This document shows, one piece after another, positions 1-62,320 of a stretch of 64,000 bases of DNA. Location of the stretch: contig JBJMGJ010000380.1 of NCBI GenBank assembly GCA_045807965.1, positions 2,218-66,217 on the forward strand. The letters run 5' to 3'. A program made the position numbers and the translations under genes. Source of the DNA: Bryobacteraceae bacterium (GTDB taxonomy: Bacteria > Acidobacteriota > Terriglobia > Bryobacterales > Bryobacteraceae). Numbering within the stretch: the first letter of the stretch is position 1; the number at the start of each line of letters is the position of its first letter. The notes under the pieces are model-generated. The model made no database searches and was not told the DNA's origin. It worked only from the letters and a program-made list of their open reading frames with translations.

Positions 1-858
1 GGCCATACCCTTCAGGTAATGCGTTCCATCCACCGCCACTCGAACCTGTGCATATCGCGATCGACCCAATGACAGATCTTCAACACCAGGCCGAACGAAT
101 ATAACTCCGTCAGCTTCAGTGCCACCCTGCTCTGCGTAACGAACAGCGAGGCGCTTGGAGCTCACAGATATGGGTGGCTGAACACCTAAGAACGATCGAC
201 CACCATCGTTGCTGTACTCTGCGATGGAGCCGATCTTGTCCTTGTTGGCCGCGATGTCCCTGTACTCGGTGCCAGGAGGTGCCAAGACTTTGATCGTGGT
301 CTTATTGCCCGTACCGAGTTGATCGACCTGAACCTTGTGAACCGTGTATCCTTGTTCACGCAGTACCGCAACAGCAGCATCGAGCTTGGTCCGGCTGACG
401 TTGGCGTGATACTCGACACCGGTGCCGATATCGAGATAACCCTTTTGATCGACCTGTCGCTTGAGCATGTCGGCCGTAGAGTTGAGTACCTTGGCCTTGT
501 CCGCTTGACCAGGAGCCAGCAAGGAGCGTACGGACGATTCGTTGATGCCCATCATCTCACCGATGCGCACATTTGAATATCCGTGATCTTTCAGCTTCTG
601 TGCTTGTGCAATCTGATCTGCCTTCTGCTGAGTCTTGGCGATCGACTTGGCAGCACGGAAGGCTGTAGTGCTCTCGATACCCAGACCTCGAGAGATCTCG
701 GTGTCACTCAGACCTTTCTTCTTCAGATCGTCAACCATTGTAAGGAAGTCACGGTTACGCTGAGATTGTGTCTCGCCCGATCCCCAAGGGTATCTTCCCG
801 ACTTGCGGAGGATCCCGTAGTGAGCGAGATAAGCTTCTTCACTGAATACGGGACTCAC
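1..858 (-). CDS. helix-turn-helix DNA-binding protein, 3' end cut by window edge
   Basis: Open minus-strand frame from GTG 858..856 (GTGA overlap with stop of 855..1415) to base 1. Absent from the track because no stop lies in the window. Hand translation shows two HTH-like segments (LSDTEISRGLGIESTTAFRAAK; YSNVRIGEMMGINESSVRSLL). Confidence 0.55.
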   Translation of the reverse strand, partial: MSPVFSEEAYLAHYGILRKSGRYPWGSGETQSQRNRDFLTMVDDLKKKGLSDTEISRGLGIESTTAFRAAKSIAKTQQKADQIAQAQKLKDHGYSNVRIGEMMGINESSVRSLLAPGQADKAKVLNSTADMLKRQVDQKGYLDIGTGVEYHANVSRTKLDAAVAVLREQGYTVHKVQVDQLGTGNKTTIKVLAPPGTEYRDIAANKDKIGSIAEYSNDGGRSFLGVQPPISVSSKRLAVRYAEQGGTEADGVIFVRPGVEDLSLGRSRYAQVRVAVDGTHYLKGMA

Positions 859-8210: not shown

Positions 8211-8259
8211 GATGTCTCCTTATGTAGGGGTTTCATCATAACCCGTGTAAACTCCGCGA
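8211..8259 (-). promoter_or_regulatory. conserved promoter-like box + leader (copy 1 of 18)
   Basis: Minus strand TCGCGGAGTTTACACGGGTTATGATGAAACCCCTACATAAGGAGACATC-ATG. Confidence 0.5.
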
Positions 8260-9770: not shown

Positions 9771-9824
9771 GGTGGCTCCTTCTCATAGTGGGGTCTTTCA
9801 TTAAGACCCATGTTATTTGTGCGA
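9771..9824 (-). promoter_or_regulatory. conserved promoter-like box + leader (copy 2)
   Basis: Minus strand CTCGCACAAATAACATGGGTCTTAATGAAAGACCCCACTATGAGAAGGAGCCACC-ATG. Confidence 0.5.
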
Positions 9825-11441: not shown

Positions 11442-11492
11442 GGCTTTTCCTTTCAGAGTGGGTCTTCATTATATGCCATGTAATCCTCGCGA
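11442..11492 (-). promoter_or_regulatory. conserved promoter-like box + leader (copy 3)
   Basis: Minus strand TCGCGAGGATTACATGGCATATAATGAAGACCCACTCTGAAAGGAAAAGCC-ATG. Confidence 0.5.
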
Positions 11493-11749: not shown

Positions 11750-11800
11750 GGGGTCTCCTTGATAGTTGGGTCTTCGTTATAACCCCCGTTATTCCTGCGA
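11750..11800 (-). promoter_or_regulatory. conserved promoter-like box + leader (copy 4)
   Basis: Minus strand TCGCAGGAATAACGGGGGTTATAACGAAGACCCAACTATCAAGGAGACCCC-ATG. The box overlaps the last codons of 11789..12151. Confidence 0.45.
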
Positions 11801-22533: not shown

Positions 22534-23448
22534 TCAGATCAGGTGGTAAACCGTACCGTCCACGTTGAAATCGAGCCAGATGGATCCTTCTTCACCGTTC
22601 ATGAAGTCGTGTACTTCGCGAGAGTTCTCATCCAGCCCGAAAGAGACGTAACCGTCCCCGCCGGTCTTCCTGGTGTCCTTCACCCAACCGACGACACAGC
22701 CTTCCTTCGTCCGCTCCATGCCGAGCGAATCGTAGACGTCGTTCAGCAACAGATATCCGTATGCCCGCAGCCGATCATTTGCCCAAGTCTGCTGGACCTG
22801 GATGAACGTCCGGTTGTCGAGCGGGTGATTGGACCAGTGCCTGTTCAGCTGATCGAACGGACGAGCGTAACCAGACATGCCCTTCGCAGCGATGCGCTTG
22901 ACCGTCTTTACCTCGTGGCCGTGCTCGTCCTCCTCGATGATCTCCTTGAGCTTATATCCGTAGCGGAACTCACGGTCCTTGTCCTCGCCGAGTTCATCAC
23001 GGACCCGCTCCCGGTACTCCTTGAAGGCCCGATCGACCACCGCGTACGCCGCAGCCAGACTGGCATTCCGCTTGGTCAGCACCACGTGTGAACCGGTCAG
23101 CAGAGCGATCGACACGAAACCCAGTCCGACCGCAGGTGCATAGAGCTTGGTGAGATCCCGAGCGAGGTGGATCTTTACCAGCCGCTGGTCGCTCTGCCAC
23201 TTCTCGACGGTGTACTGGGCCGGGCGCTCGTCATGCACTGCATCCAGTCCAACGCGGGTCTTCTCGGCCTCCTGCAGGATTTCCTCGACCTGCAGTGTGG
23301 CCTTGCACGCCAGAACCGTCGCGGTCACTGCCGTGGCGATACCAGCTCCGAACAGCATGGCCGGAGAATGCTTCCGGGCCAGCAGAGCTTGCCGAGCCAC
23401 CGCTACGGTGACTGTATTTGGAATGAACTTCACGATATGTCCTTTCAT
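22534..23448 (-). CDS. two-TM protein, paralog family member 1, 304 aa
   Basis: TM helices followed by RLRAYGYLLLNDVYDSLGMERTKEGCVVGW. Homologous to 27006..27845 and 28366..28692. Confidence 0.65.
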   Translation of the reverse strand: MKGHIVKFIPNTVTVAVARQALLARKHSPAMLFGAGIATAVTATVLACKATLQVEEILQEAEKTRVGLDAVHDERPAQYTVEKWQSDQRLVKIHLARDLTKLYAPAVGLGFVSIALLTGSHVVLTKRNASLAAAYAVVDRAFKEYRERVRDELGEDKDREFRYGYKLKEIIEEDEHGHEVKTVKRIAAKGMSGYARPFDQLNRHWSNHPLDNRTFIQVQQTWANDRLRAYGYLLLNDVYDSLGMERTKEGCVVGWVKDTRKTGGDGYVSFGLDENSREVHDFMNGEEGSIWLDFNVDGTVYHLI

Positions 23449-24302: not shown

Positions 24303-24313
24303 TCTTGAACGGT

Positions 24314-24574: not shown

Positions 24575-24627
24575 AGTCTTGGTCCTTTCGATAGAGGGGT
24601 TCATTATGAGCCGTGTAGGACTCGCGA
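24575..24627 (-). promoter_or_regulatory. conserved promoter-like box + leader (copy 5)
   Basis: Minus strand TCGCGAGTCCTACACGGCTCATAATGAACCCCTCTATCGAAAGGACCAAGACT-ATG. Confidence 0.5.
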
Positions 24628-24914: not shown

Positions 24915-25033
24915 GATAACTCCTTCGAATATGGACGGACGGATAAAGCGAGAAGACTCGTAGCGTGCACGAAGCACTTCCCATAACGGTTTAACTACGA
25001 GTCTCCTCATCATGAACCTTGTAAAACGCGCGA
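24915..25033 (-). promoter_or_regulatory. promoter-like box (copy 6) with an unusually long structured leader
   Basis: Box TCGCGCGTTTTACAAGGTTCATGATGAGGAG at about 25005..25033. The leader holds a 10-bp stem gagactcgta/tacgagtctt. Confidence 0.4.
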
Positions 25034-27005: not shown

Positions 27006-27845
27006 TCAGTGAGTTCCGCCGAATCCCTTGTGGTAGTCCTTGATGATTCCCGGGCGATTGTAATACTCCATGACGAAGCAGGGCTTGGTTCCGCCGTCGG
27101 CCACCGTTGTCGTGAAGTTCAGCTCCATCGGACTTTCGATCGTCCAGCCTACTTCACTGGAGAACTGAGTACGTGCCAGTCCGATCTCGTCGTAGAAATC
27201 GGACAGACTCACGTACATGTCGTCGATCATCCGATGGTTCAACCGAGCTTCCGCCATCTTGACCAGATGCATCTTGCTCCGGAAGTACCGGCCGGTCCAG
27301 GCTTCCAGGAACAGCACCTCATCCTCACCCGCCAGGACCTGAATATCGTCCGATGGCGGATTGTTGTGGAATCGATCCTGATTCAGCTCGTCCCGAATCT
27401 CTTGTTCCTTCTTGATCCCGAGCTTCTCGGTCACCTTGTCGCGATACTCGTCGAACTGCTTCTCGCTGACCTTGTACGCGGCAGCCAGTCCAGCGAGCCG
27501 AGTAGCACTGATGCTGTTCGCGGTCAGGATGCAGCCTACGGTTCCGACCAGCATGAGCGCTGGCGGAATATACTCCTTCCAGACCAACTTGATCTTCTCT
27601 TTGGTCTCGAGCGGATGCCCCTTCTCCATGAAGTCCTGGTTGGTCTGCTCCGCGGCGATGATCGTCGCGGCCTTGAAGGTGGCCTTACCGGTCAGATAGG
27701 CGGTCATCGCAGCGCCGGTCACGGCGAACGCCGAGATGATCGTCGGTGAATTGTCGATGGCGTACTTTTCCGCCACCTTGAGTAAGCTACGAAGCGTCAC
27801 GATGTAAATCCTCTTCCTGATAATCGTAAAGCGGGGTTTCGACAT
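27006..27845 (-). CDS. two-TM protein, paralog family member 2, up to 279 aa
   Basis: LAGLAAAYKVSEKQFDEYRDKV and YVSLSDFYDEIGLARTQFSSEVGW align with 22534..23448. The real start may be GTG 27800. Confidence 0.6.
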   Translation of the reverse strand: MSKPRFTIIRKRIYIVTLRSLLKVAEKYAIDNSPTIISAFAVTGAAMTAYLTGKATFKAATIIAAEQTNQDFMEKGHPLETKEKIKLVWKEYIPPALMLVGTVGCILTANSISATRLAGLAAAYKVSEKQFDEYRDKVTEKLGIKKEQEIRDELNQDRFHNNPPSDDIQVLAGEDEVLFLEAWTGRYFRSKMHLVKMAEARLNHRMIDDMYVSLSDFYDEIGLARTQFSSEVGWTIESPMELNFTTTVADGGTKPCFVMEYYNRPGIIKDYHKGFGGTH

Positions 27846-28365: not shown

Positions 28366-28692
28366 TCAGATCTTGTCGTACATGACGCCGTCGGGGTTGA
28401 GCGTCAGGATGAAGACGCCCGGCTCCTCCTCGACCTCGGTGATGTTGAAGTCGACGAACCCGGCGCCCTCGCCGTCTCGAAGCCAGCCGACCAACTGTCC
28501 CTGAGGAGTTCGGTCGAAGCCGAGCATGTCCTGGACGTCGTTCAGGAACAGATATCCGTACGCTCGCAGCACGTCGTTGCAGTAGTTCTGCTGGCACTGC
28601 AGGAACAGCCGGTTGGCATCCCGTTGAGGCGACCAGTGCTTGTTGGCCTGGTCGAAACGCCGGGAGTACTGGTTATTGACGGTCTCGGTCAT
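28366..28692 (-). CDS. stand-alone C-terminal domain of the paralog family, 108 aa
   Basis: VLRAYGYLFLNDVQDMLGFDRTPQGQLVGW, compared with RLRAYGYLLLNDVYDSLGMERTKEGCVVGW in 22534..23448. Confidence 0.65.
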   Translation of the reverse strand: MTETVNNQYSRRFDQANKHWSPQRDANRLFLQCQQNYCNDVLRAYGYLFLNDVQDMLGFDRTPQGQLVGWLRDGEGAGFVDFNITEVEEEPGVFILTLNPDGVMYDKI

Positions 28693-28746: not shown

Positions 28747-28870
28747 GATAAAGAGAAGAGGCTCTAGCCCAACGAAAGCTAGATTTAGCAGTCTGTCTTG
28801 TGACTGCACGCCGGGTAGGGGTTTCACCTACACATTCGTGTCTCGGCAACTCTTTCGAGTTCTCTTCTCA

Positions 28871-29110
28871 TCATGAGCCATGTATTTCTTGCGAATCACC
28901 GATCGGTTCCTGGAGGTCCTTTAAAAACTCCGGAAATTGATCAGGACGATGCAGGAAGCCTGTAGTGGAACAAGTTGGGCAACCGATCAATGTACCGGGA
29001 ACGCCGCCATCGACCATTCGATCGCCATGGCGAGGCATCCGCCGGAACGAGATGATCGGCGGCCAGTAGCCCTTGTGGAACTCGAGATGGAGAATATAAC
29101 GTTTGATCAT
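28871..29110 (-). CDS. hypothetical protein, 79 aa
   Basis: Track ORF. CPTC motif. Confidence 0.5.
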   Translation of the reverse strand: MIKRYILHLEFHKGYWPPIISFRRMPRHGDRMVDGGVPGTLIGCPTCSTTGFLHRPDQFPEFLKDLQEPIGDSQEIHGS

Positions 29111-30692: not shown

Positions 30693-30800
30693 TTACCCTT
30701 TCCAACCATTGAGCACGACAACAGTCAGCAATATCATTGCGATGAACCAGATAATGAGAACCGGAGTACCGATTCGTTCCAAGAGGTGCGGTCTGTCCAT
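30693..30800 (-). CDS. membrane microprotein, 35 aa
   Basis: Hand translation MDRPHLLERIGTPVLIIWFIAMILLTVVVLNGWKG. Confidence 0.4.
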   Translation of the reverse strand: MDRPHLLERIGTPVLIIWFIAMILLTVVVLNGWKG

Positions 30801-30827
30801 GAGGGGTCCTCTTCGAATGGGAAAAAC

Positions 30828-30859
30828 GAAAACCTAGAATCCGTGTTAGGGATTCTAGG
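30828..30859 (-). terminator. intrinsic terminator (hairpin family)
   Basis: aaaa + cctagaatcc-gtgttag-ggattctagg (10 bp). Confidence 0.75.
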
Positions 30860-30866
30860 CCTGAAG

Positions 30867-31127
30867 TCAGTTCTTCTTCTCGGGCTCGGGCTTGGGCTCG
30901 GTGGCCTCCGCCTTCAGCTCCTCGACGGCTTCCTTGCTGCGGTGGAACAGGGAGACGACGCGGGGCTTCAGGTAGTTGAACGCGACGAATCCGCCGATGA
31001 CAACAGCCGCGGTTGCGGTGCTGACCAGGGCGGTCGAGGCGAGCTCCTTCCCGAAGCCATTGGCTTCGTCCTCCAGAACCTCCGCGTCGGAAACGACGAG
31101 GTCGGTGGTGGTGGTTGCGGTGTCCAT
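30867..31127 (-). CDS. cassette gene: single-pass membrane protein, 86 aa
   Basis: TM segment LVSTATAAVVIGGFVAFNYL. Has its own box and terminator. Confidence 0.6.
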   Translation of the reverse strand: MDTATTTTDLVVSDAEVLEDEANGFGKELASTALVSTATAAVVIGGFVAFNYLKPRVVSLFHRSKEAVEELKAEATEPKPEPEKKN

Positions 31128-31182
31128 AGTGGGCTCCTAGATAGAGGGGTCTTCTTCATTATGTGCCTTGTAAATTTTGCGA
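31128..31182 (-). promoter_or_regulatory. conserved promoter-like box + leader (copy 7)
   Basis: Minus strand TCGCAAAATTTACAAGGCACATAATGAAGAAGACCCCTCTATCTAGGAGCCCACT-ATG. Confidence 0.5.
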
Positions 31183-31398
31183 ATCTAAGACGTTGTTCCT
31201 TCCTCGTTGACGGAGAATAACAGCACATCCCGGACAGAACTCAATATGCACGTTCGATGGCAGATTATCAAAGTTAGCCACATGCATAGGCATACAAATG
31301 GCTACATCAGTACCATCGACAACCAAATGTTTAAGCACTGTGGGAATAAGACTTTGTGTGGGAAGGCCATCACGCAATGGAATGTATTTGTCAATCAT
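31159..31398 (-). CDS. cassette-region gene: soluble Cys-containing protein, 79 aa
   Basis: SD AAGGAGCG. Its 3' end runs through box 7. It has no box of its own. Confidence 0.5.
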   Translation of the reverse strand: MIDKYIPLRDGLPTQSLIPTVLKHLVVDGTDVAICMPMHVANFDNLPSNVHIEFCPGCAVILRQRGRNNVLDSQNLQGT

Positions 31399-31413
31399 AA
31401 TCGCTCCTTAGCT

Positions 31414-31440
31414 AAAACCAGAATCCTTGTGGGATCCTGG
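31414..31440 (-). terminator. intrinsic terminator (hairpin family)
   Basis: aaaa + ccagaatcc-ttgtg-ggatcctgg. The mismatch is a G-U pair on the minus strand only. Confidence 0.7.
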
Positions 31441-31450
31441 TCGTTGAGGG

Positions 31451-31642
31451 TTACTCCTCGTCGGAGGGGGTGTAGAACTCTTCGTAGAGGTCGTGCTCCT
31501 TGAGGAAGTCGTCGTGAGCCTTCAGCGCACTCTTGTTCAGCGCCAGGCCAAGGGCGGCGGTGGCGGTGACGGCAAGTGCGGTCTTGTGCTTGATGACGAA
31601 CTTCTTCGTGGAGGAGGCGGCCTTCTGGACGATGCGGTTCAT
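31451..31642 (-). CDS. cassette gene: membrane protein, 63 aa
   Basis: ATG 31642 (MNRIVQ). TM segment ALAVTATAALGLAL. Confidence 0.55.
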   Translation of the reverse strand: MNRIVQKAASSTKKFVIKHKTALAVTATAALGLALNKSALKAHDDFLKEHDLYEEFYTPSDEE

Positions 31643-31695
31643 GGTGGCTCCTTGGTTGAGGGTCTTCTTCATTAGAAGCCATGTTGATCTTGCGA
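31643..31695 (-). promoter_or_regulatory. conserved promoter-like box + leader (copy 8)
   Basis: Minus strand TCGCAAGATCAACATGGCTTCTAATGAAGAAGACCCTCAACCAAGGAGCCACC-ATG. Confidence 0.5.
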
Positions 31696-31696
31696 G

Positions 31697-31723
31697 AAAA
31701 CCAGAATCCTTGTGGGATCCTGG
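31697..31723 (-). terminator. intrinsic terminator (hairpin family)
   Basis: aaaa + ccagaatcc-ttgtg-ggatcctgg. Confidence 0.7.
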
Positions 31724-31731
31724 TTGTTGAA

Positions 31732-31899
31732 TCAGAACTTCTTGTGGGACTTGCGGAACTCGTCGACCTTCATCCAGATCAGTCCGATCCCGGCGAGGAG
31801 ACCGAGCGCGGCGACGTTCACGGCGAGTGCCTGAGCGTAGCCCTTTGCGGTCTCGACGGCGATGATCTTGCTGATCTCGGTAACGTCAGAGCGGTCCAT
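31732..31899 (-). CDS. cassette gene: membrane protein, 55 aa
   Basis: ATG 31899 (MDRSDV). TM segment LAVNVAALGLLAGIGLIWM. Confidence 0.55.
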   Translation of the reverse strand: MDRSDVTEISKIIAVETAKGYAQALAVNVAALGLLAGIGLIWMKVDEFRKSHKKF

Positions 31900-31954
31900 G
31901 GTGGGTCCTTTCAAAGAGGGGTCTTCTTCGTTATAGGACGTGTTGATCTTGCGA
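31900..31954 (-). promoter_or_regulatory. conserved promoter-like box + leader (copy 9)
   Basis: Minus strand TCGCAAGATCAACACGTCCTATAACGAAGAAGACCCCTCTTTGAAAGGACCCACC-ATG. Confidence 0.5.
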
Positions 31955-31993
31955 GAGATTTCTAGAAATTCCCCCCGGGGTTTTTCTGGGGTG

Positions 31994-32020
31994 AAAAAAC
32001 CTAAAGCCCTTGTGGGGCTT
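31994..32020 (-). terminator. intrinsic terminator (hairpin family loop)
   Basis: aaaaaa + aagccc-ttgtg-gggctt. Confidence 0.6.
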
Positions 32021-32039
32021 GTCGGTTTGGAACTCTTAC

Positions 32040-32267
32040 TCAGAGCTTGGCACGAGCGGCGACGATGGCGATCTGCGAAGCGGTGTCGATCAACTTCTTG
32101 GCGGCGTAGGCGAGCACGGCTAGTTTGGCAACCGTCTGCGAGGTCTCCTGGGCGATCTTTCCGATCTTGTCCCAGTCGACGTCTGCGGTGACGGTCTCAG
32201 TAGTGGCGTCCTTACCAGCCTTGGGCTGCTTGACGAGCTGCACAGAAACGGCGCGATTGCCGAACAT
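32040..32267 (-). CDS. cassette gene: amphipathic or membrane-associated protein, 75 aa
   Basis: ATG 32267 (MFGNRAV). C-terminal VAKLAVLAYAAKKLIDTASQIAIVAA. Confidence 0.55.
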   Translation of the reverse strand: MFGNRAVSVQLVKQPKAGKDATTETVTADVDWDKIGKIAQETSQTVAKLAVLAYAAKKLIDTASQIAIVAARAKL

Positions 32268-32317
32268 GGCGATAGTCCTTTCATAGGGGTTCATTATGAC
32301 CCATGTATACTCTGCGA
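32268..32317 (-). promoter_or_regulatory. conserved promoter-like box + leader (copy 10)
   Basis: Minus strand TCGCAGAGTATACATGGGTCATAATGAACCCCTATGAAAGGACTATCGCC-ATG. Confidence 0.5.
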
Positions 32318-32334
32318 ACGCCCCTATTTTGACG

Positions 32335-32362
32335 AAAACTAGAATCCTTGTGGGGATCCTAG
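32335..32362 (-). terminator. intrinsic terminator (hairpin family)
   Basis: aaaa + ctagaatcc-ttgtgg-ggatcctag. Confidence 0.7.
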
Positions 32363-32372
32363 CTTTGAGGTG

Positions 32373-32546
32373 TTACTCTTCTGTTTCGGTCTCGTCGTTG
32401 GTCTTGTTGATGTAGTACCACCCGGCAGCAGCGCCAGTTGCAGCGAGGAGCGTGTAGCCGAAGATCTTTTGGATCTTCTCTTTCGTCTCCCAGTGCAACT
32501 TGACTTCGTACGTGCCGAGGCCATTCTTCATCACGTTGAACTTCAT
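32373..32546 (-). CDS. cassette gene: membrane protein, 57 aa
   Basis: ATG 32546 (MKFNVMK). TM segment FGYTLLAATGAAAGWYYI. Confidence 0.55.
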   Translation of the reverse strand: MKFNVMKNGLGTYEVKLHWETKEKIQKIFGYTLLAATGAAAGWYYINKTNDETETEE

Positions 32547-32602
32547 GACAGGGTCCTTTCGAAGAGGGGTTCTTCTCATCATGACCCGTGTGAAACATGC
32601 GA
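32547..32602 (-). promoter_or_regulatory. conserved promoter-like box + leader (copy 11)
   Basis: Minus strand TCGCATGTTTCACACGGGTCATGATGAGAAGAACCCCTCTTCGAAAGGACCCTGTC-ATG. Confidence 0.5.
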
Positions 32603-32631
32603 AGAACTAGAGCCCTTGTTAGGGGCTCTAG
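32601..32631 (-). terminator. intrinsic terminator (hairpin family)
   Basis: ctagagccc-ttgttag-gggctctag. The U-tract is interrupted. Confidence 0.6.
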
Positions 32632-32635
32632 TCGC

Positions 32636-32830
32636 TCAGTGATTGAACGCTTCTTGGAGCAGGGCCTTGGCTCGGGTGAATTCCTCGTCGGTGAATCGGG
32701 GCTGCTGCACGGCCGGACAACGCTTGCGGTTTCGCCTGCTCTCGATCGATTGAGTGATCTCGAGCGACTTGACGGCGGCGGTCGGGCCTGCAACTGCCCA
32801 GATGGCGATTGCGAGGAGGTTCTTCTTCAT
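32636..32830 (-). CDS. cassette gene: signal-peptide or TM protein, 64 aa
   Basis: MKKNLLAIAIWAVAGPTAAV at the N-terminus. Confidence 0.6.
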   Translation of the reverse strand: MKKNLLAIAIWAVAGPTAAVKSLEITQSIESRRNRKRCPAVQQPRFTDEEFTRAKALLQEAFNH

Positions 32831-32886
32831 CAGGGGGTCCTTTCAAAGAGGGGTCTTCTTCGTTATGTGCCATGTGATCTTTGCGA
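32831..32886 (-). promoter_or_regulatory. conserved promoter-like box + leader (copy 12)
   Basis: Minus strand TCGCAAAGATCACATGGCACATAACGAAGAAGACCCCTCTTTGAAAGGACCCCCTG-ATG. Confidence 0.5.
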
Positions 32887-32913
32887 AAAACCATAACCCT
32901 TGTGAGGTTATGG
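32886..32913 (-). terminator. intrinsic terminator (hairpin family)
   Basis: aaaaa + ccataacc-cttgtga-ggttatgg. Confidence 0.75.
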
Positions 32914-32940
32914 TCTTGATCGAACTGATGGATCGGACCG

Positions 32941-33054
32941 TCAGAAGCCGTCGAGTGGCTTGGTGACGAATTCGATGAGCGCGATCAGCGGAAGTACGGT
33001 GACAACCTTGATCACCTCGACGATGACGTTCTCATTGCGGCGGTGCTTGGCCAT
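32941..33054 (-). CDS. cassette gene: membrane microprotein, 37 aa
   Basis: Hand translation MAKHRRNENVIVEVIKVVTVLPLIALIEFVTKPLDGF. Flanked by a full box and a terminator although it is below the track cutoff. Confidence 0.5.
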   Translation of the reverse strand: MAKHRRNENVIVEVIKVVTVLPLIALIEFVTKPLDGF

Positions 33055-33107
33055 GATGGTCCTTTCATAGAGGGGTTCTTTCATTATGATCCATGTAATA
33101 CGTGCGA
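33055..33107 (-). promoter_or_regulatory. conserved promoter-like box + leader (copy 13)
   Basis: Minus strand TCGCACGTATTACATGGATCATAATGAAAGAACCCCTCTATGAAAGGACCATC-ATG. Confidence 0.5.
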
Positions 33108-33113
33108 TGAGGC

Positions 33114-33141
33114 AAAAACCATAACCCTTGTGAGGTTATGG
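33114..33141 (-). terminator. intrinsic terminator (hairpin family)
   Basis: aaaaa + ccataacc-cttgtga-ggttatgg. Confidence 0.75.
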
Positions 33142-33151
33142 TCTTGGGAAC

Positions 33152-33373
33152 TCAGTTGAAAGGCGCGAGGAGATAGGTGCGATTGCGCTCAGCACGCTGA
33201 CCTTGCTGGTAGCCTGCCGTCCAACCCTCCTGGAAGGTCTTAGAGAATTCCTCATAGCTGGTCAAGCGCGTGATGCGCTTGTTCAGCTTGAGGATCTCCT
33301 GATCCTTCTTTTGGGTTGTAACGACGACGCCAACAATGAATGCGAGAGCAGCTGCGATCAGCGACTTGATCAT
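33152..33373 (-). CDS. cassette gene: N-terminally anchored membrane protein, 73 aa
   Basis: MIKSLIAAALAFIVGVVVTT. Confidence 0.6.
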   Translation of the reverse strand: MIKSLIAAALAFIVGVVVTTQKKDQEILKLNKRITRLTSYEEFSKTFQEGWTAGYQQGQRAERNRTYLLAPFN

Positions 33374-33425
33374 GTCTGGTCCTTTCGTGGAGGGGTTTCC
33401 ATTATGAGCCGTGTAATACGTGCGA
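33374..33425 (-). promoter_or_regulatory. conserved promoter-like box + leader (copy 14)
   Basis: Minus strand TCGCACGTATTACACGGCTCATAATGGAAACCCCTCCACGAAAGGACCAGAC-ATG. Confidence 0.5.
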
Positions 33426-33455
33426 AAAGCTAGAGCCCTTGTTAGGGGCTCTAGC
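33425..33455 (-). terminator. intrinsic terminator (hairpin family)
   Basis: aaaa + gctagagccc-ttgtta-ggggctctagc. Confidence 0.75.
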
Positions 33456-33468
33456 CTTCCAGCTACTG

Positions 33469-33702
33469 CTAGAGTCGAACGACTGGACGGAACTCATCCA
33501 GGGACTCTGGTCCGACAAACTCGTAGCTCTCGAAGAAGTCCTCGATGGAAACGATCACGGCGTGATGGTTGGGGTCGTCCGGAAGAATGAAGTAGGTCCC
33601 CGGGTGTCCGTGGGGCCCTGCTTCGATTTCCGGCCTGAGTCCACCGTTGTTGGTAGCGATCAGATCCAGTGACTTCTCGTTGATACTCACTGCGTGCGGC
33701 AT
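33469..33702 (-). CDS. cassette gene: soluble acidic protein, 77 aa
   Basis: Track ORF with its own box and terminator. Confidence 0.6.
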   Translation of the reverse strand: MPHAVSINEKSLDLIATNNGGLRPEIEAGPHGHPGTYFILPDDPNHHAVIVSIEDFFESYEFVGPESLDEFRPVVRL

Positions 33703-33756
33703 GGTATTCCTTTCGGGTTGTAGGGTCGTTCACTATGGCACGTGTAAACTCTGCGA
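33703..33756 (-). promoter_or_regulatory. conserved promoter-like box + leader (copy 15)
   Basis: Minus strand TCGCAGAGTTTACACGTGCCATAGTGAACGACCCTACAACCCGAAAGGAATACC-ATG. Confidence 0.5.
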
Positions 33757-33785
33757 AAAACCAGAATCCGTGTTAGGGATTCTGG
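33756..33785 (-). terminator. intrinsic terminator (hairpin family)
   Basis: aaaaa + ccagaatcc-gtgttag-ggattctgg. Confidence 0.75.
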
Positions 33786-33795
33786 TCTTGAGGTC

Positions 33796-33975
33796 TTACT
33801 TGTCGGACAGCAGAAGGTTCTTGATGTGGTGCGACAGCGGCTTCGGGGCCGGGGGCATCCGGAGCGCGGGCTTCTTCACGAGCCGCATCGACTTGTAGTA
33901 GGTGGTCGTACGGGGCGTGGAAGCGGGCGCGGTGAATGCGTCGGTACCGAAGGGGTTGGCAACATCGTTGAACAT
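33796..33975 (-). CDS. cassette gene: basic proline-rich protein, 59 aa
   Basis: ATG 33975 (MFNDVANPFG) behind CTATGAGAGGACCCCGCATC. Confidence 0.55.
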   Translation of the reverse strand: MFNDVANPFGTDAFTAPASTPRTTTYYKSMRLVKKPALRMPPAPKPLSHHIKNLLLSDK

Positions 33976-34031
33976 GATGCGGGGTCCTCTCATAGTAGTG
34001 GTTCTCATTATGAGCCATGCAATTCTTGCGA
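33976..34031 (-). promoter_or_regulatory. conserved promoter-like box + leader (copy 16)
   Basis: Minus strand TCGCAAGAATTGCATGGCTCATAATGAGAACCACTACTATGAGAGGACCCCGCATC-ATG. Confidence 0.5.
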
Positions 34032-34036
34032 TCTTG

Positions 34037-34064
34037 AAAAACTAGAATCCTTGTGGGATTCTAG
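34037..34064 (-). terminator. intrinsic terminator (hairpin family)
   Basis: aaaaa + ctagaatcc-ttgtg-ggattctag. Confidence 0.75.
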
Positions 34065-34072
34065 CTTTGGGA

Positions 34073-34372
34073 TCACTCCACCTTGACGAGGTAGTCAGAG
34101 GTGATGTCTTCCGGCATGATGGCCAGGCCCCCGCGATTGATCTCGGCAAGGAGATTGATCACTTGAGCCACCTTGTCCCATGCTTCAGACTCTTCTCGCG
34201 TCCAGGAAATCCGGATCGGCTCTTCGGGCTTCCATTCCCGACCGTAAACGATCTTGTGATTTCTTTGGGCTGCGAACCAGGCGTCTTGTGCACGGTTGTA
34301 AGCGGCTGCAAGGTCATCGTCCAGGACGAGGTGCAGCGGGGAGCCCATCCATGCATAGGTCGACTGGGTCAT
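34073..34372 (-). CDS. cassette gene: soluble protein, 99 aa
   Basis: Track ORF with its own box and terminator. Confidence 0.6.
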   Translation of the reverse strand: MTQSTYAWMGSPLHLVLDDDLAAAYNRAQDAWFAAQRNHKIVYGREWKPEEPIRISWTREESEAWDKVAQVINLLAEINRGGLAIMPEDITSDYLVKVE

Positions 34373-34430
34373 TGTCTTTCCTTTCGATATGTGGAGGGGT
34401 TTCCATTAGAACCCATGTAATCCCCGCGAG
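34373..34430 (-). promoter_or_regulatory. conserved promoter-like box + leader (copy 17)
   Basis: Minus strand TCGCGGGGATTACATGGGTTCTAATGGAAACCCCTCCACATATCGAAAGGAAAGACA-ATG. Confidence 0.5.
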
Positions 34431-34456
34431 CGGCAATTTTTTATACACCTTGTCCG

Positions 34457-34502
34457 AAAACCAGAGAGCCTGTAAACGGGTCAAGGTCTACAGGCTCTCT
34501 GG
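34457..34502 (-). terminator. strong intrinsic terminator
   Basis: aaaa + perfect 14-bp stem ccagagagcctgta / tacaggctctctgg with a 14-nt loop. Confidence 0.75.
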
Positions 34503-34531
34503 CGGTCGGAGATCTATCTCGGGTCGATGTC

Positions 34532-34819
34532 TCAGCGAAGCTTCATGATGAAGCTCAGAGCTTTCGAGGTCACGATGTGCACTCGTTCATGGCCGACGAT
34601 GATGATAATTCCGGCGAGGTTCGCGACGATGGTGGCAACAGTGTCCGGGCTGATGCGCGGCTGACGTTCTACGGTCTTCAGCGCATGCAGCTTGGCCAGC
34701 TGGTCCACCATTTGGGCGTACGGCTCGGAATCAACGGTCTCGTTGTCCATCTCTTCGAGTACACGATCGATTGCCTTCTCCAGCCCGGACTTTTCGGCAG
34801 GGGGCTTCTGGATGTTCAT
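34532..34819 (-). CDS. cassette gene: tail-anchored membrane protein, 95 aa
   Basis: ATG 34819 (MNIQKPP). TM segment VATIVANLAGIIIIVG. Confidence 0.55.
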   Translation of the reverse strand: MNIQKPPAEKSGLEKAIDRVLEEMDNETVDSEPYAQMVDQLAKLHALKTVERQPRISPDTVATIVANLAGIIIIVGHERVHIVTSKALSFIMKLR

Positions 34820-34872
34820 ATCGATCCTTTCGGTAGGGGTCTCTTTCACTATAAGCGATGTATTATCCGCGA
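34820..34872 (-). promoter_or_regulatory. conserved promoter-like box + leader (copy 18)
   Basis: Minus strand TCGCGGATAATACATCGCTTATAGTGAAAGAGACCCCTACCGAAAGGATCGAT-ATG. Confidence 0.5.
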
Positions 34873-34890
34873 TTGACCCCTATTTTGACA

Positions 34891-35241
34891 CTACTGCCCA
34901 GAAGCGCCCGGATGGTTGATCTTGAACTCCATCGAGTGTTTGCCCGGCTCGTCGACGACATCCTCCGGCGGCTGATTGAAGGCGATCTGTACCTTCTTGC
35001 CGCCGTCATCGGCGGGAAAGACATTGACGTCACCGTCGAAGTTCGAACCGGACTTGTAGTACTGACCCGTGCTGAGATGCAAGATCACACCGAGGAAAGT
35101 ATCCAATGCGGTGATCGACCCGATTACCTTTTCCGCTGCTGGAATGCCCCAGATCCCGGCCAGTGCGAAATATAACGTCCCTAGTGCAGGCAGCAGCACC
35201 AGTGCAACGAATTTCAGTCGATCGTACAATCCGTTCGACAT
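34891..35241 (-). CDS. holin, Dp-1-like family, 116 aa
   Basis: From ATG 35241: MSNGLYDRLKFVALVLLPALGTLYFALAGIWGIPAAEKVIGSITALDTFLGVIL. This matches my memory of the Dp-1 holin family pattern (YD.LK.IA...LPAL.TLYFAL..IWG.P....V.GTI.A.DTFLG). Confidence 0.6.
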   Translation of the reverse strand: MSNGLYDRLKFVALVLLPALGTLYFALAGIWGIPAAEKVIGSITALDTFLGVILHLSTGQYYKSGSNFDGDVNVFPADDGGKKVQIAFNQPPEDVVDEPGKHSMEFKINHPGASGQ

Positions 35242-35260
35242 CTGGCTCCGAGTAGTCTGA

Positions 35261-35713
35261 TCAGAGCTGCCCGGGTTTGTCACGATAATCTCCCATCGGG
35301 TTGGTATCATCTTCGCGCTCACGGATAAGTTCGGTCGAACCCGTAGGTAATCCTCGCTCGAGCCGAGTAAACCTGGTTCGAAGATGCGCAAGTTCTTCGC
35401 GAAGCCTTCGGTTATCCGCTAACACCATCTGATTTTCTTGATGCAACCGATCATTTGCATAATGAAGCTGCTGAATATCGCGCTCATGTTCATCAGCTTC
35501 TTCGCGTAGTTCCAATAGTTCAACTTTCTGCCGGTTAATGGTTTCGGTATCAAGTGCCCGAGCTCGTTCGTACGCTTCTTTCTCCATCTCGACTCGAGAC
35601 GAGGTGACTACGTTTGTCGTAGACGCTCTTGAAGAAGCCTTTGCCGAAGCCCAACCACCTAAGGCAGCTATCAAAGAAACGATGATACTACCTACGGCTA
35701 TTCCTGTTGTCAT
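35261..35713 (-). CDS. N-terminal TM + coiled-coil protein (lysis accessory?), 150 aa
   Basis: ATG 35713 behind AAGGA. TM segment TTGIAVGSIIVSLIAALGGWA, then heptad-like ELLELREEADEHERDIQQLHYANDRLHQEN. Confidence 0.5.
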   Translation of the reverse strand: MTTGIAVGSIIVSLIAALGGWASAKASSRASTTNVVTSSRVEMEKEAYERARALDTETINRQKVELLELREEADEHERDIQQLHYANDRLHQENQMVLADNRRLREELAHLRTRFTRLERGLPTGSTELIREREDDTNPMGDYRDKPGQL

Positions 35714-44889: not shown

Positions 44890-45266
44890 GCTGAGGTCAC
44901 CGCCTTCCACACAGTCTGTGCGATGTCGTCAAAGATCGGGCGAATAGCTGGATTGATAAAATCACGACCTTGGACGTAACCTCCGGTGCCGGTTCCATGG
45001 CCGTATTGAAGCATGATCACGACCGGAAAGCCATTCTCGATGTCAGAGTTGGTCCAGACAATCGCAAATCCGCCCCTATTTTGACGAACTTCATAACCCC
45101 ACGACCGAGCGGCCAAGCTGGTACGAACCGGGGTTGCGGCTGCCAAAGCTTGAGCACCTCTTGCCGCCTGGGCATCCACTAGTCGTGGAATGTCTAGCTT
45201 TTGGGCGGTTTGAAGAAAGCGCTCGGTGTTTTTGAAGGAGCCACGCTGGGTGATTCGGATCGCCAT
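44886..45266 (-). CDS. HK97 gp10-like tail/neck protein, 126 aa
   Basis: IENGFPVVIMLQYGHGTGTGGYVQGRDFINPA resembles the gp10-family core (E.G....P..PF..PA) as I recall it. Confidence 0.5.
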   Translation of the reverse strand: MAIRITQRGSFKNTERFLQTAQKLDIPRLVDAQAARGAQALAAATPVRTSLAARSWGYEVRQNRGGFAIVWTNSDIENGFPVVIMLQYGHGTGTGGYVQGRDFINPAIRPIFDDIAQTVWKAVTSA

Positions 45267-51659: not shown

Positions 51660-52961
51660 CTATTCGATTGCTGGTACTGTCGTCGTTCTGGTCGAAGGCA
51701 CTCGAATCGGTTCGTTGATCGAAGGGTCAACAGACGTGTCAATTGGAGTGCCAACAGGGGGTGCCTGCTGGCCTAGCTCCGATTGAGGCATGTTGCTGTT
51801 CCGAAGTTGATTCGCCTTCGGGTCGTTGGACGGCTGCATTCCGATGACCTGACGGATCTCATTGGAAGACAGGATCTCATTCCGAGTGAACTTATCCGCG
51901 ATTTCAGCAAGGTCACCGACCGGTACCAGCTTGAACGGCTCTCGGAAGTACTCAATGGACTGCTTCTGCGTTCGGGCAGTCTTGGTAAGGAAACTCCGGC
52001 GCATTGCCTCCACGATGGCAGTCAGAAGGGGCTCGATGGTACGGTTCTGATAGTTGAGCATGGTCTTCTCATCCGCCGTACCATTCATGATCTCCGGCGT
52101 AAGGCCAAGCTGACCGTAGAGCATCTCAGTCAGATACTTGATCTGAGCAAGAAGATTGTTCTCCACCGGCCGGTTCAATTGGGTGATCTTCTCAGTTCCA
52201 TCCACATAAGCAATACCATACTGGCTGCCCTTGAGCTGGAACTCGATGTCAGCGCGACGCTGTTCGGCTTGCTGTCGCCGTGCTTCCGATTTGATAACAT
52301 ATGGAAGCTGAATAACCATGTCCAGTTTGCCTGAACTCGACTGTTCATCCACGGAATCCAGAAGCCCTAGCTTCCGAATAAGCCGTTGCATGGTCGAGTT
52401 CGGCTGGTTCATGATGTCGTAGAACGGATTCTCGACAATAGCTACTGCTCTCTTGCTGAGCGTAATCTCTTCACGACGTCCGCGTCGTTCGTTGTACAGC
52501 GAAATCGTGACATGCTGTGGATGCCACTGAATAATTTCGCCAACCCGCATGGTCAAGATGTCAAAGTTGCCAGAATTCTGCGGATTTAGCGTGGTATCCA
52601 CTGGAACGATCGCGATAGTACCCTGCTGAATCAGCGACATGACCATGTCTTGCCGAAAAGCTCGTGCGCCTTGATCCAGATTAGCTTCAACGGTAAGACA
52701 ATTGTTCAACCCACTAGTGAGCTCTTCAACAAACCAGCCATTGTCATCCAGCCGAACGTGCTTCATTGCGACCGAAGCAGCATCCGTCGCAAGTCTTGTG
52801 TAAACCGAGGTGACGATCGATCGTTCATTGGTAGTCAGCAAACGAGTTCGATCTGGTCGAAGTGTGTAGCCCGGTCCCATGTCAGTACTAGGAATCCGAC
52901 CTACATCGTCCATGTTAGTGAACGCATTCCAGGCGTGAACTAATCGGTCCTTAAAGGACAT
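51660..52961 (-). CDS. portal protein, 433 aa
   Basis: Size, and position directly upstream of the protease-capsid gene. Confidence 0.6.
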   Translation of the reverse strand: MSFKDRLVHAWNAFTNMDDVGRIPSTDMGPGYTLRPDRTRLLTTNERSIVTSVYTRLATDAASVAMKHVRLDDNGWFVEELTSGLNNCLTVEANLDQGARAFRQDMVMSLIQQGTIAIVPVDTTLNPQNSGNFDILTMRVGEIIQWHPQHVTISLYNERRGRREEITLSKRAVAIVENPFYDIMNQPNSTMQRLIRKLGLLDSVDEQSSSGKLDMVIQLPYVIKSEARRQQAEQRRADIEFQLKGSQYGIAYVDGTEKITQLNRPVENNLLAQIKYLTEMLYGQLGLTPEIMNGTADEKTMLNYQNRTIEPLLTAIVEAMRRSFLTKTARTQKQSIEYFREPFKLVPVGDLAEIADKFTRNEILSSNEIRQVIGMQPSNDPKANQLRNSNMPQSELGQQAPPVGTPIDTSVDPSINEPIRVPSTRTTTVPAIE

Positions 52962-54277: not shown

Positions 54278-55016
54278 GTTTCACTACCTCTCTGAATGGC
54301 GTGGCATCAATGCCCATCTCCCGGTGAAGGGTTTCACCCCACGCCTTCACGAAGGCTGGTGGATTCGGATTCCAATGGTATTGAGAAAATAACTCAGCTT
54401 CGAGTTCTTCTCGAGACCCAGATGCTGCTGCGTAGCCAGAAACCCTGGATATCTGTAGATGTTCCGGAATGCCGTCTGATGCGGCTTGCTTCGTCGCAGC
54501 TTTCAACGCCGCATTCCGCGCATCTATGTTTCCGCCGACTACTTTTTGCCTAAATAAACCCGGTCTGATCTCTTGCTCGGCATGGAACAAAGCGTGTGCA
54601 GATTCGTGAGTGATGAAACCATTCACGTTGCCCGTACCTTCGGCGAACCAACCGGTTTTTTCGGCATTAGCCAGCTCTTTCCGCTGATCACCCGGACGCA
54701 TGTGCACGACACCACCGCGCTGTCCAGGAGTACTTTCCACATAACCGACCGTTCCATAGGCGTACTCTGCTGGGTTGGTTTGCTTCAGATCTTTAAAATC
54801 ACTGATCTGAAAACCATACCTCGACGCCATCAACGGAGCAATTCTCTTTGCGCCGTCCTTCGTTGAAGGATGTAAGGACGCAGCAATGGTCGGAGATGCG
54901 GCATGAAGCCGATACCCGTGGGAATCATCTGCCTTACGTACGCCCCACTTCATGCCCTTGACGCCGAAGTGAACGAGTTCATCCAGTGGCGGTTTATCAT
55001 CCTGTCCCAAAATCAC
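54270..55016 (-). CDS. GVKGMKWGVR-tagged putative zinc metalloprotease (HExxH), 248 aa
   Basis: HFGVKGMKWGVRK at residues 16-28. FITHESAHALFH (HExxH at 54594..54608). Confidence 0.6.
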   Translation of the reverse strand: MILGQDDKPPLDELVHFGVKGMKWGVRKADDSHGYRLHAASPTIAASLHPSTKDGAKRIAPLMASRYGFQISDFKDLKQTNPAEYAYGTVGYVESTPGQRGGVVHMRPGDQRKELANAEKTGWFAEGTGNVNGFITHESAHALFHAEQEIRPGLFRQKVVGGNIDARNAALKAATKQAASDGIPEHLQISRVSGYAAASGSREELEAELFSQYHWNPNPPAFVKAWGETLHREMGIDATPFREVVKHG

Positions 55017-61600: not shown

Positions 61601-61955
61601 AGGTCACCTCCGTAACCAGTTGATTGACCTGCAGTCGACCGGACAGAATTACCAGTCCGCGAGCATTCGGATCGTTGGCGTCGGCGATCACCACGTCGTA
61701 ATAACCGCCGTGCACGGTTTTGGACTGATTCCCGTCCAATGCGAAGTCGATGACGATGTCCTCGGCATCGTAGGAAGGGGTCATAAACGGCGTCAGATCC
61801 GTTTTGAGCGTCGAACGGCTGTTGTTCCCTACCCGTACCTGGCTGAGGACTGAAAAATCAGCCAAGGTGGGCCAGACGGCCCGTCCACCGACGATCCGGA
61901 AGCGCCTAGCGTAGGAAAGACCGGCTACGATGGTAAGGTCAAGGGTGACTGCCAT
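61593..61955 (-). CDS. hypothetical fibre-module protein, 120 aa
   Basis: ATG 61955 (MAVTLDL) behind GAAGGA. Confidence 0.5.
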
Positions 61956-62296: not shown

Positions 62297-62320
62297 TCAG
62301 AACACCTCCTTGGAAATGAG

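Follow-up and report, generated by a model that had tools for sequence, protein, structure and literature searches.

The window analysed here is a stretch of 64,000 nucleotides of contig JBJMGJ010000380.1 (assembly GCA_045807965.1, filed under a Bryobacteraceae bacterium), which carries an array of very small genes directly downstream of a phage holin gene. This tandem array very probably comprises 12 autonomous transcription units together with two promoterless passenger genes, placed between the lysis gene and the replication genes. It is real, well above chance; it is also similar to the promoter-early stem-loop (PeSL) cassettes of other phages and has already been noted in this phage lineage. 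Two features appear to be new, namely the occurrence of the same box of about 30 nt in phages of Streptomyces, Gordonia, Rhodococcus and Lactococcus (phage 1706) which share a putative RNA-dependent RNA polymerase (RdRP)/YonO-like polymerase, and a predicted transcription start right at the TATA-like hexamer of that box. Positions are those of the window, and all features described lie on its minus strand, which carries all of its credible genes.

Fourteen open reading frames (ORFs), designated A to N, were identified between positions 34819 and 30693, with the cassette boxes starting at 34872; the starts at 34819, 33975 and 32267 were corrected to the ATG behind a GAAAGGA ribosome site. These calls, together with the Pfam match of the holin, bear out a preliminary description of the region, which had counted 14 ORFs of 35-99 aa in the 4.2 kb behind that gene and had placed a conserved box and leader ahead of 12 of them. 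A hidden Markov model (HMM) built from the 12 units gave exactly 12 matches in the region (E 1e-11 to 1e-17) and 7 elsewhere in the window. The box consists of TCGCR, exactly 14 nt and a hexamer, which reads CATAAT in five of the 12 array copies and TATAGT, CATAGT, CATGAT, CATAAC, TATAAC or TCTAAT in the others, while the leader is composed of 3-8 purines, ACCCCUC, 3-5 nt, GAAAGGA (or AAGGAG) and a further 5-8 nt before the ATG. The flanks, previously called near-identical, were found to be 60-100% identical to a reference copy.

Cassette A (34460..34872) has its box at 34872-34848 (hexamer TATAGT), an ORF of 95 aa at 34819-34532 with a C-terminal hydrophobic helix, and a hairpin at 34503-34460 with an 18-bp stem. 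It is followed by cassette B (34038..34429; box 34429-34405), which encodes a soluble product of 99 aa (34372-34073) and ends in a hairpin with the loop CACAA (34068-34038), and by cassette C (33757..34031; box 34031-34007), with an ORF of 59 aa (33975-33796) and a hairpin with the loop CUAACAC (33789-33757). The box of cassette D (33423..33756) is at 33756-33732, its ORF of 77 aa at 33702-33469 and its hairpin, with the loop CUAACAA, at 33461-33423. Cassettes E (33115..33425; box 33425-33401) and F (32887..33107; box 33107-33083) both encode transmembrane (TM) products, of 73 aa with the helix N-terminal (33373-33152) and of 37 aa (33054-32941), and their hairpins are at 33145-33115 (loop CACAA) and 32917-32887, respectively. 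A signal-like N-terminus was observed for the 64-aa product (32830-32636) of cassette G (32605..32886; box 32886-32862), whose hairpin (32633-32605, loop CUAACAA) has a weak T-run, and a borderline TM helix for the 57-aa product (32546-32373) of cassette H (32335..32602; box 32602-32578; hairpin 32366-32335). Cassette I (32004..32317; box 32317-32293) encodes 75 aa (32267-32040) and ends in a weak hairpin (32020-32004) followed by a T-run; cassette J (31699..31954; box 31954-31930; hairpin 31725-31699) encodes a TM protein of 55 aa (31899-31732) and cassette K (31416..31695; box 31695-31671; hairpin 31442-31416) a protein of 63 aa (31642-31451). Gene L (31159..31398, 79 aa), without its own box, is situated between the K hairpin and the M box, which its 3' end overlaps. 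Cassette M (30830..31182; box 31182-31158) encodes a TM protein of 86 aa (31127-30867) and ends in a hairpin with the loop CUAACAC (30862-30830). Gene N (30693..30800; 35 aa, TM) has a hairpin upstream and no box. Its sequence runs into the beginning of the following operon (30705-30451 onward), for which no box is present either and which presumably depends on read-through.

A hairpin with a T-run lies within a few bases 3' of 12 genes and 0-49 nt upstream of the next box. Eleven of the 12 have folding energies of -15 to -33 kcal/mol with z-scores of -4.3 to -8.2 and are predicted to act as terminators, while the hairpin at 32020 is weak (-8.4 kcal/mol, z -2.1). The terminator rule of the promoter/terminator scan misses most of this hairpin family because the T-run forms part of the stem; antisense 'terminators' flagged within the leaders were dismissed as plus-strand G·U artefacts. 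The description of twelve units of identical layout held for the 12 boxes and 12 hairpins but not in full. Among the 12 boxed genes only 10 have a hairpin directly upstream; in cassette A the holin stop comes immediately before, with no hairpin in between, and M is preceded by gene L. In L and N the reverse was seen, a hairpin upstream without a box.

Ten of the 11 strong hairpins share a loop (CACAA, CCACAA or CUAACAM), the hairpin of cassette A being outside this family, and their stems form several groups with compensatory differences. The loop, CYAACAM in general form (CUAACAC or CUAACAA, short form CACAA), is kept on stems without shared sequence in the window, in contigs L002, L016 and L051 and in phages ReqiPepy6, ReqiPoco6 and Vardy; such hairpins were seen at 33789, 33461, 32633, 30862 and other positions of the window, at 10157, 12222 and 12704 of L001, 4042 and 4498 of L083, 11508 of L016, 1468 of L051 and 8604 of L084. 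Ordinary intrinsic terminators need no specific loop. Conservation of the loop on unlike stems suggests selection on the loop itself, which could be a protein-binding or polymerase-specific signal.

A hydrophobic helix was clear in seven products (A, E, F, G, J, M and N) and borderline in two (H and K) by the Kyte-Doolittle scale in 19-residue windows, so that the earlier figure of nine of 14 products with a membrane helix or signal is acceptable but soft. The products have no similarity to one another, as had been stated (all-versus-all BLASTP, best off-diagonal E=0.09).

The box is not restricted to the array. The HMM search located 19 copies in the window, every one of them on the coding strand and below position 35000, with none in the 28 kb of structural genes from 36000 to 64000; a relaxed regular expression gave 22 minus-strand matches and one on the plus strand. 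Twelve of the 19 copies fall in the 4.2 kb of the array, and all protein-coding targets are of 37-100 aa. Of the seven others, five carry the leader and precede a small gene: 24603..24627 (86 aa, ATG 24574), 11776..11800 (a TM gene of 71 aa, ATG 11749), 11468..11492 (73 aa, ATG 11441, with a family hairpin at 11527 just upstream), 9800..9824 (69 aa, ATG 9770) and 8235..8259 (100 aa, ATG 8210). The remaining two, ending at 28894 and 25033, are described below. Family hairpins beyond the array were found at 24306, 11213, 9554 and 7901, in addition to that at 11527. From this distribution the box is predicted to be the phage's general promoter for the non-structural half of the genome, and since copies of both box and hairpin occur elsewhere in that half, the array would be a local concentration of a general promoter and terminator, not a region with a regulatory shell of its own as previously supposed.

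The same box was observed in related phages. The 14-nt spacing between TCGCR and the hexamer is kept in 89 of 91 instances in 14 actinophage contigs (consensus TCGCa..aattACAcggccTATAaTGAgAcccc). The same order, in which the holin (or tail genes, where the holin is elsewhere) is followed by repeated units, was found in IMG/VR contig L002 (12 boxes), in L003, L004, L016 and L051, in Rhodococcus phages ReqiPepy6 (gp041-gp054) and ReqiPoco6, in Gordonia phage Vardy (7 strict copies of TCGCR-N14-TATAATGAGACCCCTACGAAAGGA) and in Streptomyces phage HazuAndZazu (11 strict boxes). Lactococcus phage 1706 carries a diverged form, with 12 copies of TTTTACATAYACTATAGTAGAAAG(AAGG); copies one to six stand before orf23-orf26, with no gene annotated behind the third, and the remainder are located further on, each preceded by a hairpin with a T-run. 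In actinophage mRNA leaders ACCCCUC is kept whatever the ribosome site (GAAAGGA in the window, GATTGGA in a BI phage), and it is missing before RNAs.

One non-array copy (28894-28870) precedes a candidate non-coding RNA (ncRNA) of about 120 nt (28869-28749; whole unit 28749..28894) with a closing helix GAGAAGAG/CUCUUCUC and a conserved core GAGACACGAAUGUGUAGGUGAAACCCCUACCC. The stretch contains no convincing ORF and folds into a multi-branched structure (-42.6 kcal/mol, z -3.1); neither the window at gathering thresholds nor this stretch at E<=10 matched an Rfam family. A search of viral contigs with the core motif returned 71 loci, in 26 of which a box within 90 nt upstream and the whole RNA are common; homologues include L001 11322-11450, L083 3124-3250, L005 13072-13200 and about 20 IMG/VR loci such as L094, L097, L099, L108, L112, L129 and L146. 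Besides the window, 25 IMG/VR loci have the box ahead of this RNA. In an alignment of 19 sequences, two-sided changes keep the pairing at four of the five pairs of helix P3, with one non-pairing cell in 95, and helix P5 covaries too. The closing helix (P1), compared in hand-trimmed sequences of the 19 homologues, has its first base directly behind the hexamer in 14 and covaries (GAGAAGAG/CTCTTCTC, AGAGGAG/CTCCTCT (GAGGAG/CTCCTC), GAGAGG/CCTCTC, GAAGAG/CTCTTC). The next 3' base is A in 12 of the 19 and could pair with the last T of the hexamer.

In ReqiPepy6 and ReqiPoco6 a box without the ACCCCUC/GAAAGGA leader stands 8 nt upstream of a tRNA-Ala. Because it precedes both a tRNA and a structured RNA without the leader, the box appears separable from leader and ORF and to behave as a promoter. 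The copy at 25009..25033 also lacks the usual leader and is followed by a long perfect hairpin of about 56 nt (GAGGAGACUCGUAG...CUACGAGUCUUCUC, within 24950-25033) with a 5' arm similar to the beginning of the ReqiPepy6 tRNA-Ala, GACUCGUAGCUCAG; this element may be what is left of a tRNA, or some other small RNA, and ARAGORN found no tRNA in the window. Diverged boxes of phage 1706 (L157) at 31061, 35720 and 46468 are followed by non-coding sequence, one preceding a tRNA 5'-end-like GGATATAGCTCAGAAGGG and one a short hairpin RNA with a T-run. As the 1706 copies also precede non-coding sequence, box-driven small RNAs seem to be general in this phage group.

The position of P1 bears on where transcription starts. 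With the closing helix beginning right after the hexamer, the start would be placed at or before the end of the hexamer and not 6-8 nt downstream, and we infer a start at or beside that end. In phage 1706 the Shine-Dalgarno sequence GAAAGAAGG begins 2 nt after the hexamer. Conservation of the box is long and rigid and runs through the hexamer into GAGA, in the fashion of T7-type promoters; CTATAGTGAGA here resembles T7 CTATAGGGAGA, and CCTATAGTGAGA resembles T7 CACTATAGGGAGA. A scan for the sigma-70 consensus found no -35/-10 pair and no -35 at any box, and the conserved upstream element TCGCR, 14 nt from the hexamer, is too close to be one. Compared with promoters of phage polymerases (T7-type class II/III; the early promoters of the N4 and crAss-like virion RNA polymerases; YonO of SPbeta, PMC5467207), the box is alike in its length and conservation up to the predicted start site, in a TATA-like melting segment followed by a purine-rich initial transcript, and in co-occurring with a putative polymerase gene whose product is annotated as structural in 1706. 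It differs in that the candidate polymerase is not T7-like and has weak RdRP/YonO homology, and the resemblance to CTATAGGGAGA may be convergent.

The candidate is encoded at 1..849, where the window end cuts the gene of an RdRP/YonO-like helix-turn-helix (HTH) protein homologue and leaves its N-terminal 283 aa, which are 55% identical to ReqiPepy6 gp106 (tblastn, E=1e-86). Both ReqiPepy6 gp106 and 1706 gp75 are annotated as RNA-dependent RNA polymerase, with the ReqiPepy6 annotation calling the 1706 homologue a structural protein, and a protein of about 900 aa so annotated is present in every box-bearing lineage. In the full ReqiPepy6 protein Pfam recognised HTH domains at both ends and an RdRP domain below threshold (E=0.0045), and a sequence search of PDB with this polymerase returned a trivial HTH match only. 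A preprint (bioRxiv 10.1101/842583) describes a DxDGD loop and puts the HHpred probability of a match to RdRP at 95.7%, and YonO is the one characterised relative, its promoter still being undefined (PMC5467207). The best 120 homologues listed for the N-terminal part were all of 496 aa or less and apparently N-terminal fragments, four of them on contigs of 37-73 kb; assemblies may often break in or beside this gene.

The evidence leans, if modestly, towards recognition of the box by the RdRP/YonO-like polymerase of the phage itself over recognition by the sigma-A holoenzyme of the host, on account of the missing -35, the rigid T7-like conservation, the spread across hosts, the closing helix and the 1706 Shine-Dalgarno. 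That it is instead an ordinary host sigma-A early promoter, consisting of a -10 TATAAT and a phage-specific upstream element and read at once after infection, is a lesser but substantial possibility; such early reading by host RNA polymerase is assumed for the motif of Vardy and Conley and for PeSLs of T4-like phages. Actinobacterial sigma-A promoters frequently lack a good -35, the hexamer is TATAAT or CATAAT in most copies, and the ReqiPepy6 tRNA begins 8 nt past the hexamer, compatible with a start 6-7 nt downstream; published notes also take the hexamer as a sigma-70 -10 (PMC9671010, PMC10868162). Against this stand the missing -35, about 30 nt kept with rigid spacing across phages with hosts from Streptomyces to Lactococcus, conservation continuing through GAGA past the hexamer, and an RNA closing helix and a Shine-Dalgarno of 1706 that start right behind it.

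An improbable alternative is that the boxes are not promoters at all, the array being one read-through transcript in which the repeats serve as operator or translational-repressor sites, RNase sites or stabilisers. The leader ACCCCUC...GAAAGGA is conserved independently of the promoter part and is missing before the tRNA and the ncRNA, which makes a post-transcriptional role of the leader probable, and the stop codon of the holin is followed directly by a motif TCAAAATAGGGG and the box of cassette A with no terminator in between. However, the upstream half of the box precedes a tRNA and a structured RNA without the leader, as a promoter would; hairpins with a T-run lie 3-30 nt past the stop codons in the manner of classical intrinsic terminators; and the boxes are intergenic and on the coding strand only. 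The exact motif TCAAAATAGGGG occurs at 34877-34888 and 32321-32332, 4-5 nt upstream of boxes A and I, and once in the tail genes (45073-45084), and L002 carries TCAAAATGGGGG at the equivalent places (~10497 and ~13163). A motif TCAAAATRGGGG was considered as a second promoter class and rejected, as five one-mismatch matches appear to lie within coding sequence or at a gene start; three exact copies remain.

Gain, loss and exchange of cassettes, for which the preliminary description had proposed a comparison of related genomes, were seen. L002 has no G, H or J and carries instead two other cassettes and a duplicate M-like gene, and at the position of J it passes from the same spacer straight to the box of K. 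Between ReqiPepy6 and ReqiPoco6 the collinear alignment breaks exactly at the end of box and leader (9440/1461), single units are inserted or deleted (gp044, gp046) with both bracketing boxes matching one box in the other genome, and two genes are replaced (gp041 by gp042 and gp051 by gp050). By sequence, this turnover is the signature of PeSL cassettes (PMC2839356). The earlier idea of an exchange hot spot is partly supported: whole units come and go at boxes in both genome pairs, but several cassettes are conserved in position. Gene L has a GC content of 0.42 and a third-codon-position GC content (GC3) of 0.36, against a GC3 of 0.69-0.89 in cassettes A-K and M, and these values suggest a recent foreign insertion. 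Since an unrelated promoterless gene occupies the slot of gene L in L002 (14115-14471), the terminator-promoter junction looks like a tolerated, moron-type insertion point.

An integron-like, site-specific cassette system, with the conserved-loop hairpins as attC-like recombination sites, would also consist of tandem single-gene cassettes, each with an imperfect hairpin at its 3' end, and the kept CYAACAM loop on wholly different stems could be read in this way. It is nevertheless highly improbable, given that the cassettes bring their own promoters, unlike those of integrons, that the hairpins are terminator-like, about 30 nt long with a T-run and without the R/L box architecture of attC, that the ReqiPepy6/ReqiPoco6 breakpoints lie in the promoter boxes and not in the hairpins, and that no integrase or recombinase domain was found among the 34 window proteins scanned with Pfam.

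The payload within the conserved shell, although variable, is not free, as six to nine products have positional orthologues in L002: collinear orthologues of A, B, C, I, K and M are 59, 72, 52, 47, 51 and 57% identical at the amino acid level, and weaker orthologues of D, E and F are 31-35% identical. Four products belong to PHROG families of unassigned function (A, phrog_5818, E=2.7e-32; B, phrog_26203; I, phrog_6618; K, phrog_12653, E=2.3e-14), while D, E, F, G, H and J match no database family. Eight other contigs, L002 and ReqiPepy6 among them, encode a homologue of A behind a box copy; I also has a homologue in L051, and K-like proteins (…KHK…FLxxHxLxDEFY) were found in L002, ReqiPepy6, L004, L016 and L052. 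That many of the micro-ORFs are chance ORFs in a repeat-rich non-coding spacer is scarcely credible: ORFs of 35-60 aa are hard to validate and six products lack a family, but one ORF fills each unit and starts 5-8 nt behind GAAAGGA or AAGGAG, the in-frame GC3 is high, length and sequence are kept by orthologues in L002 and other phages, and equivalents are annotated in ReqiPepy6, ReqiPoco6, Vardy and HazuAndZazu.

Several points weigh against the reading of the array as autonomous units served by a phage polymerase. The hexamer is a perfect or near-perfect sigma-70 -10 (TATAAT/CATAAT) and was read as such by the authors on Vardy and Conley. The polymerase assignment is built on the sub-threshold Pfam and preprint HHpred similarities given above, with only the N-terminal third of the protein in the window. 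P1 is of low complexity (GA-rich against CU-rich beside a T-run) and its pairing could be partly fortuitous, and start sites, 3' ends and timing, in this phage and its relatives alike, are all deduced from sequence. Purifying selection on the micro-ORFs is not cleanly measurable: in comparison with L002, synonymous change is close to saturated (pS 0.3-0.68), which makes the ratio of nonsynonymous to synonymous change (dN/dS) uninformative. Turnover at the window's own boundaries is visible only against this contig of ~60% identity, no close relative having been found.

The anatomy, strand and region bias, cross-phage conservation and unit-level indels observed here would fit a scheme in which promoter and terminator activity, the polymerase, timing and protein functions are predicted. 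RNA polymerase would initiate at the promoter of about 30 nt, TCGCR-N14-(C/T)ATA(A/G)T, giving a transcript with a short run rich in purines at its start, then ACCCCUC and a strong ribosome site, GAAAGGA, 5-8 nt ahead of the ATG, for efficient translation of a product of 35-99 aa. The hairpin and U-run a few bases past the stop would end the transcript and insulate the next unit, the T-run abutting the next promoter, and the box-less genes (L, N and the operon at 30705) would be fed by terminator read-through. This would yield, in one burst, about a dozen short monocistronic mRNAs for small, mostly single-pass membrane proteins, made along with the other non-structural genes. The repeated shells of 60-100 bp would offer homology for unequal recombination, through which, as in the PeSL model, whole units could be gained, lost and swapped between relatives. 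By analogy with small membrane proteins made early by other phages, the products may act in takeover, exclusion or envelope remodelling; the exclusion, takeover and lysis-timing functions proposed earlier are guesses. The fullest version of the scheme, put forward tentatively and with confidence somewhat short of even, holds that the box (TCGCR-N7-ACAY-N4-TATA(A/G)T followed by GAGA in actinophages, TTTTACATAYACTATAGT followed by AGAAAG in 1706) is the promoter of the RdRP/YonO-like polymerase common to this inter-phylum group of phages; were that polymerase injected along with the phage DNA, the array would amount to an early host-takeover programme independent of rifampicin, with the CYAACAM hairpins as cognate terminators, and the same promoter would drive the ncRNA of about 120 nt.

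The module is not undescribed, as had been thought. PeSL cassettes of the hyperplastic regions of T4-like myoviruses (Arbiol et al. 2010, PMC2839356; Comeau et al. 2014, PMC4122927) embody the same concept: composite repeats of about 100 bp, containing a promoter and a terminator, surround single small genes of unassigned function, each gene having its own promoter and terminator, and are concentrated in a plastic region, with indels between close relatives bounded by the repeats. The array shares with them a stable stem-loop in a composite repeat, a plastic region ahead of small genes and repeat-bounded indels. It differs in its promoter, as PeSL promoters have the full sigma-70 consensus (-35 TTGACA, a spacer of 16-18 nt, -10 TATAAT) with an AT-rich upstream element, which the array boxes do not show, lacking a -35 and seemingly starting at the hexamer. 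PeSL stem-loops also overlap the promoter in several registers, whereas the array hairpin is always ahead of the box; PeSLs have neither a conserved mRNA leader nor a conserved hairpin loop, both of which the array has; and they belong to Gram-negative myoviruses and not to an actinobacterial-type siphovirus.

Within the lineage, motif and small TM genes are on record for DJ and CC phages. The Vardy report describes 'five copies of a 50-bp motif' with TATAAT, six terminators and 13 TM/signal genes (PMC9671010), and that on Conley, also of cluster DJ, the same (PMC10868162), the intergenic motif of these two phages being of 43-50 bp; a centre of small TM genes has been reported for clusters CC, DJ, AM, AU and AW (PMC13313380). 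The DJ motif is of the same sequence family, central position and supercluster as the box, but those notes count five copies, take the hexamer as a sigma-70 -10 and the terminators as rho-dependent, whereas 19 copies are present in the window, 12 in a tandem row, with a hexamer that is mostly CATAAT. ReqiPepy6 and ReqiPoco6 (cluster CC) are alike in TerL (82%), GC content and gene order; gp041-gp054 of ReqiPepy6 are 'membrane/periplasmic' proteins of 35-93 aa separated by the same box and loop-family hairpins, and its RNA polymerase-like gene comes last but one, where the non-structural arm ends, with the window ending within the homologue at the same relative position. They differ in having no nucleotide-level similarity to the window, only some products (the A and K families) in common, and, in ReqiPepy6, a tRNA and the ncRNA within the array, the ncRNA of the window being 2 kb downstream.

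With 12 units in 4.2 kb, the array is a clean, dense example from which the regulatory grammar of a large supercluster of little-studied phages can be read: a long promoter found from Streptomyces to Lactococcus phages, a separable mRNA leader, conserved-loop terminators and a box-driven structured RNA. The likely link of the promoter to a polymerase and the box-driven RNA are what is of most interest beyond the known systems. If the box is a phage-polymerase promoter, it would be the first promoter consensus for a YonO/RdRP-like bacteriophage RNA polymerase, and recognition by these polymerases and the injected early programme would become directly testable. The micro-proteins are candidate host-takeover or exclusion factors, short enough for one-by-one screening.

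Because of its TerL identity and its GC content, which is like that of ReqiPepy6 (~54% in the window, 53.4% in ReqiPepy6), the phage is assigned by sequence to the siphoviruses of the Pepy6/DJ/BI/1706 supercluster. The members of this group are Streptomyces BI, Gordonia DJ, Rhodococcus CC, Arthrobacter AM/AU/AW, Microbacterium EL, Lactococcus 1706-like and Faecalibacterium FP_oengus phages (bioRxiv 10.1101/842583), and the core genes looked for (TerL, portal, primase-polymerase, helicase, exonuclease and the RdRP-like HTH protein) were all found. TerL is 82-83% identical to that of Streptomyces cluster BI phages and of ReqiPepy6/ReqiPoco6, and the exonuclease, endonuclease, HNH protein and RNA polymerase N-terminus are 39-59% identical to those of ReqiPepy6, where they stand in the same order. 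No match was obtained by megablast when the 6-kb array region was compared with 50,697 phage records; sensitive BLASTN against the phage collection gave only short matches, in gene A (Gordonia DJ phages) and gene K (Streptomyces BI phages, weak). An exact-pattern scan of viral contigs for the window's box and leader gave no match, and a single metagenome scan with protein A gave one distant locus only.

Virion proteins are encoded from 64000 to 36000, among them TerL (55013-56764), the portal (51660-52961), a protease-capsid fusion, a tape measure of 1,831 aa and a Sipho_Gp37 tail protein. They are followed by a holin of the Dp-1 family (34891..35391; PF16938 Phage_holin_Dp1, E=4.9e-26), the micro-gene region and then the non-structural genes, which encode three DUF6353 paralogues, an ssDNA-binding protein, a primase-polymerase of 1,257 aa, a helicase, an HNH endonuclease and an exonuclease. 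Two of the DUF6353 paralogues are full-length and one consists of the C-terminal 100 residues only (27006-27845, 22534-23448 and 28366-28692). The window showed no reverse transcriptase. At 60254-63862, ahead of the terminase module, a collagen-repeat protein of 448 aa and a protein of 513 aa with Mtd_N (major tropism determinant) and Laminin_G_3 domains are encoded.

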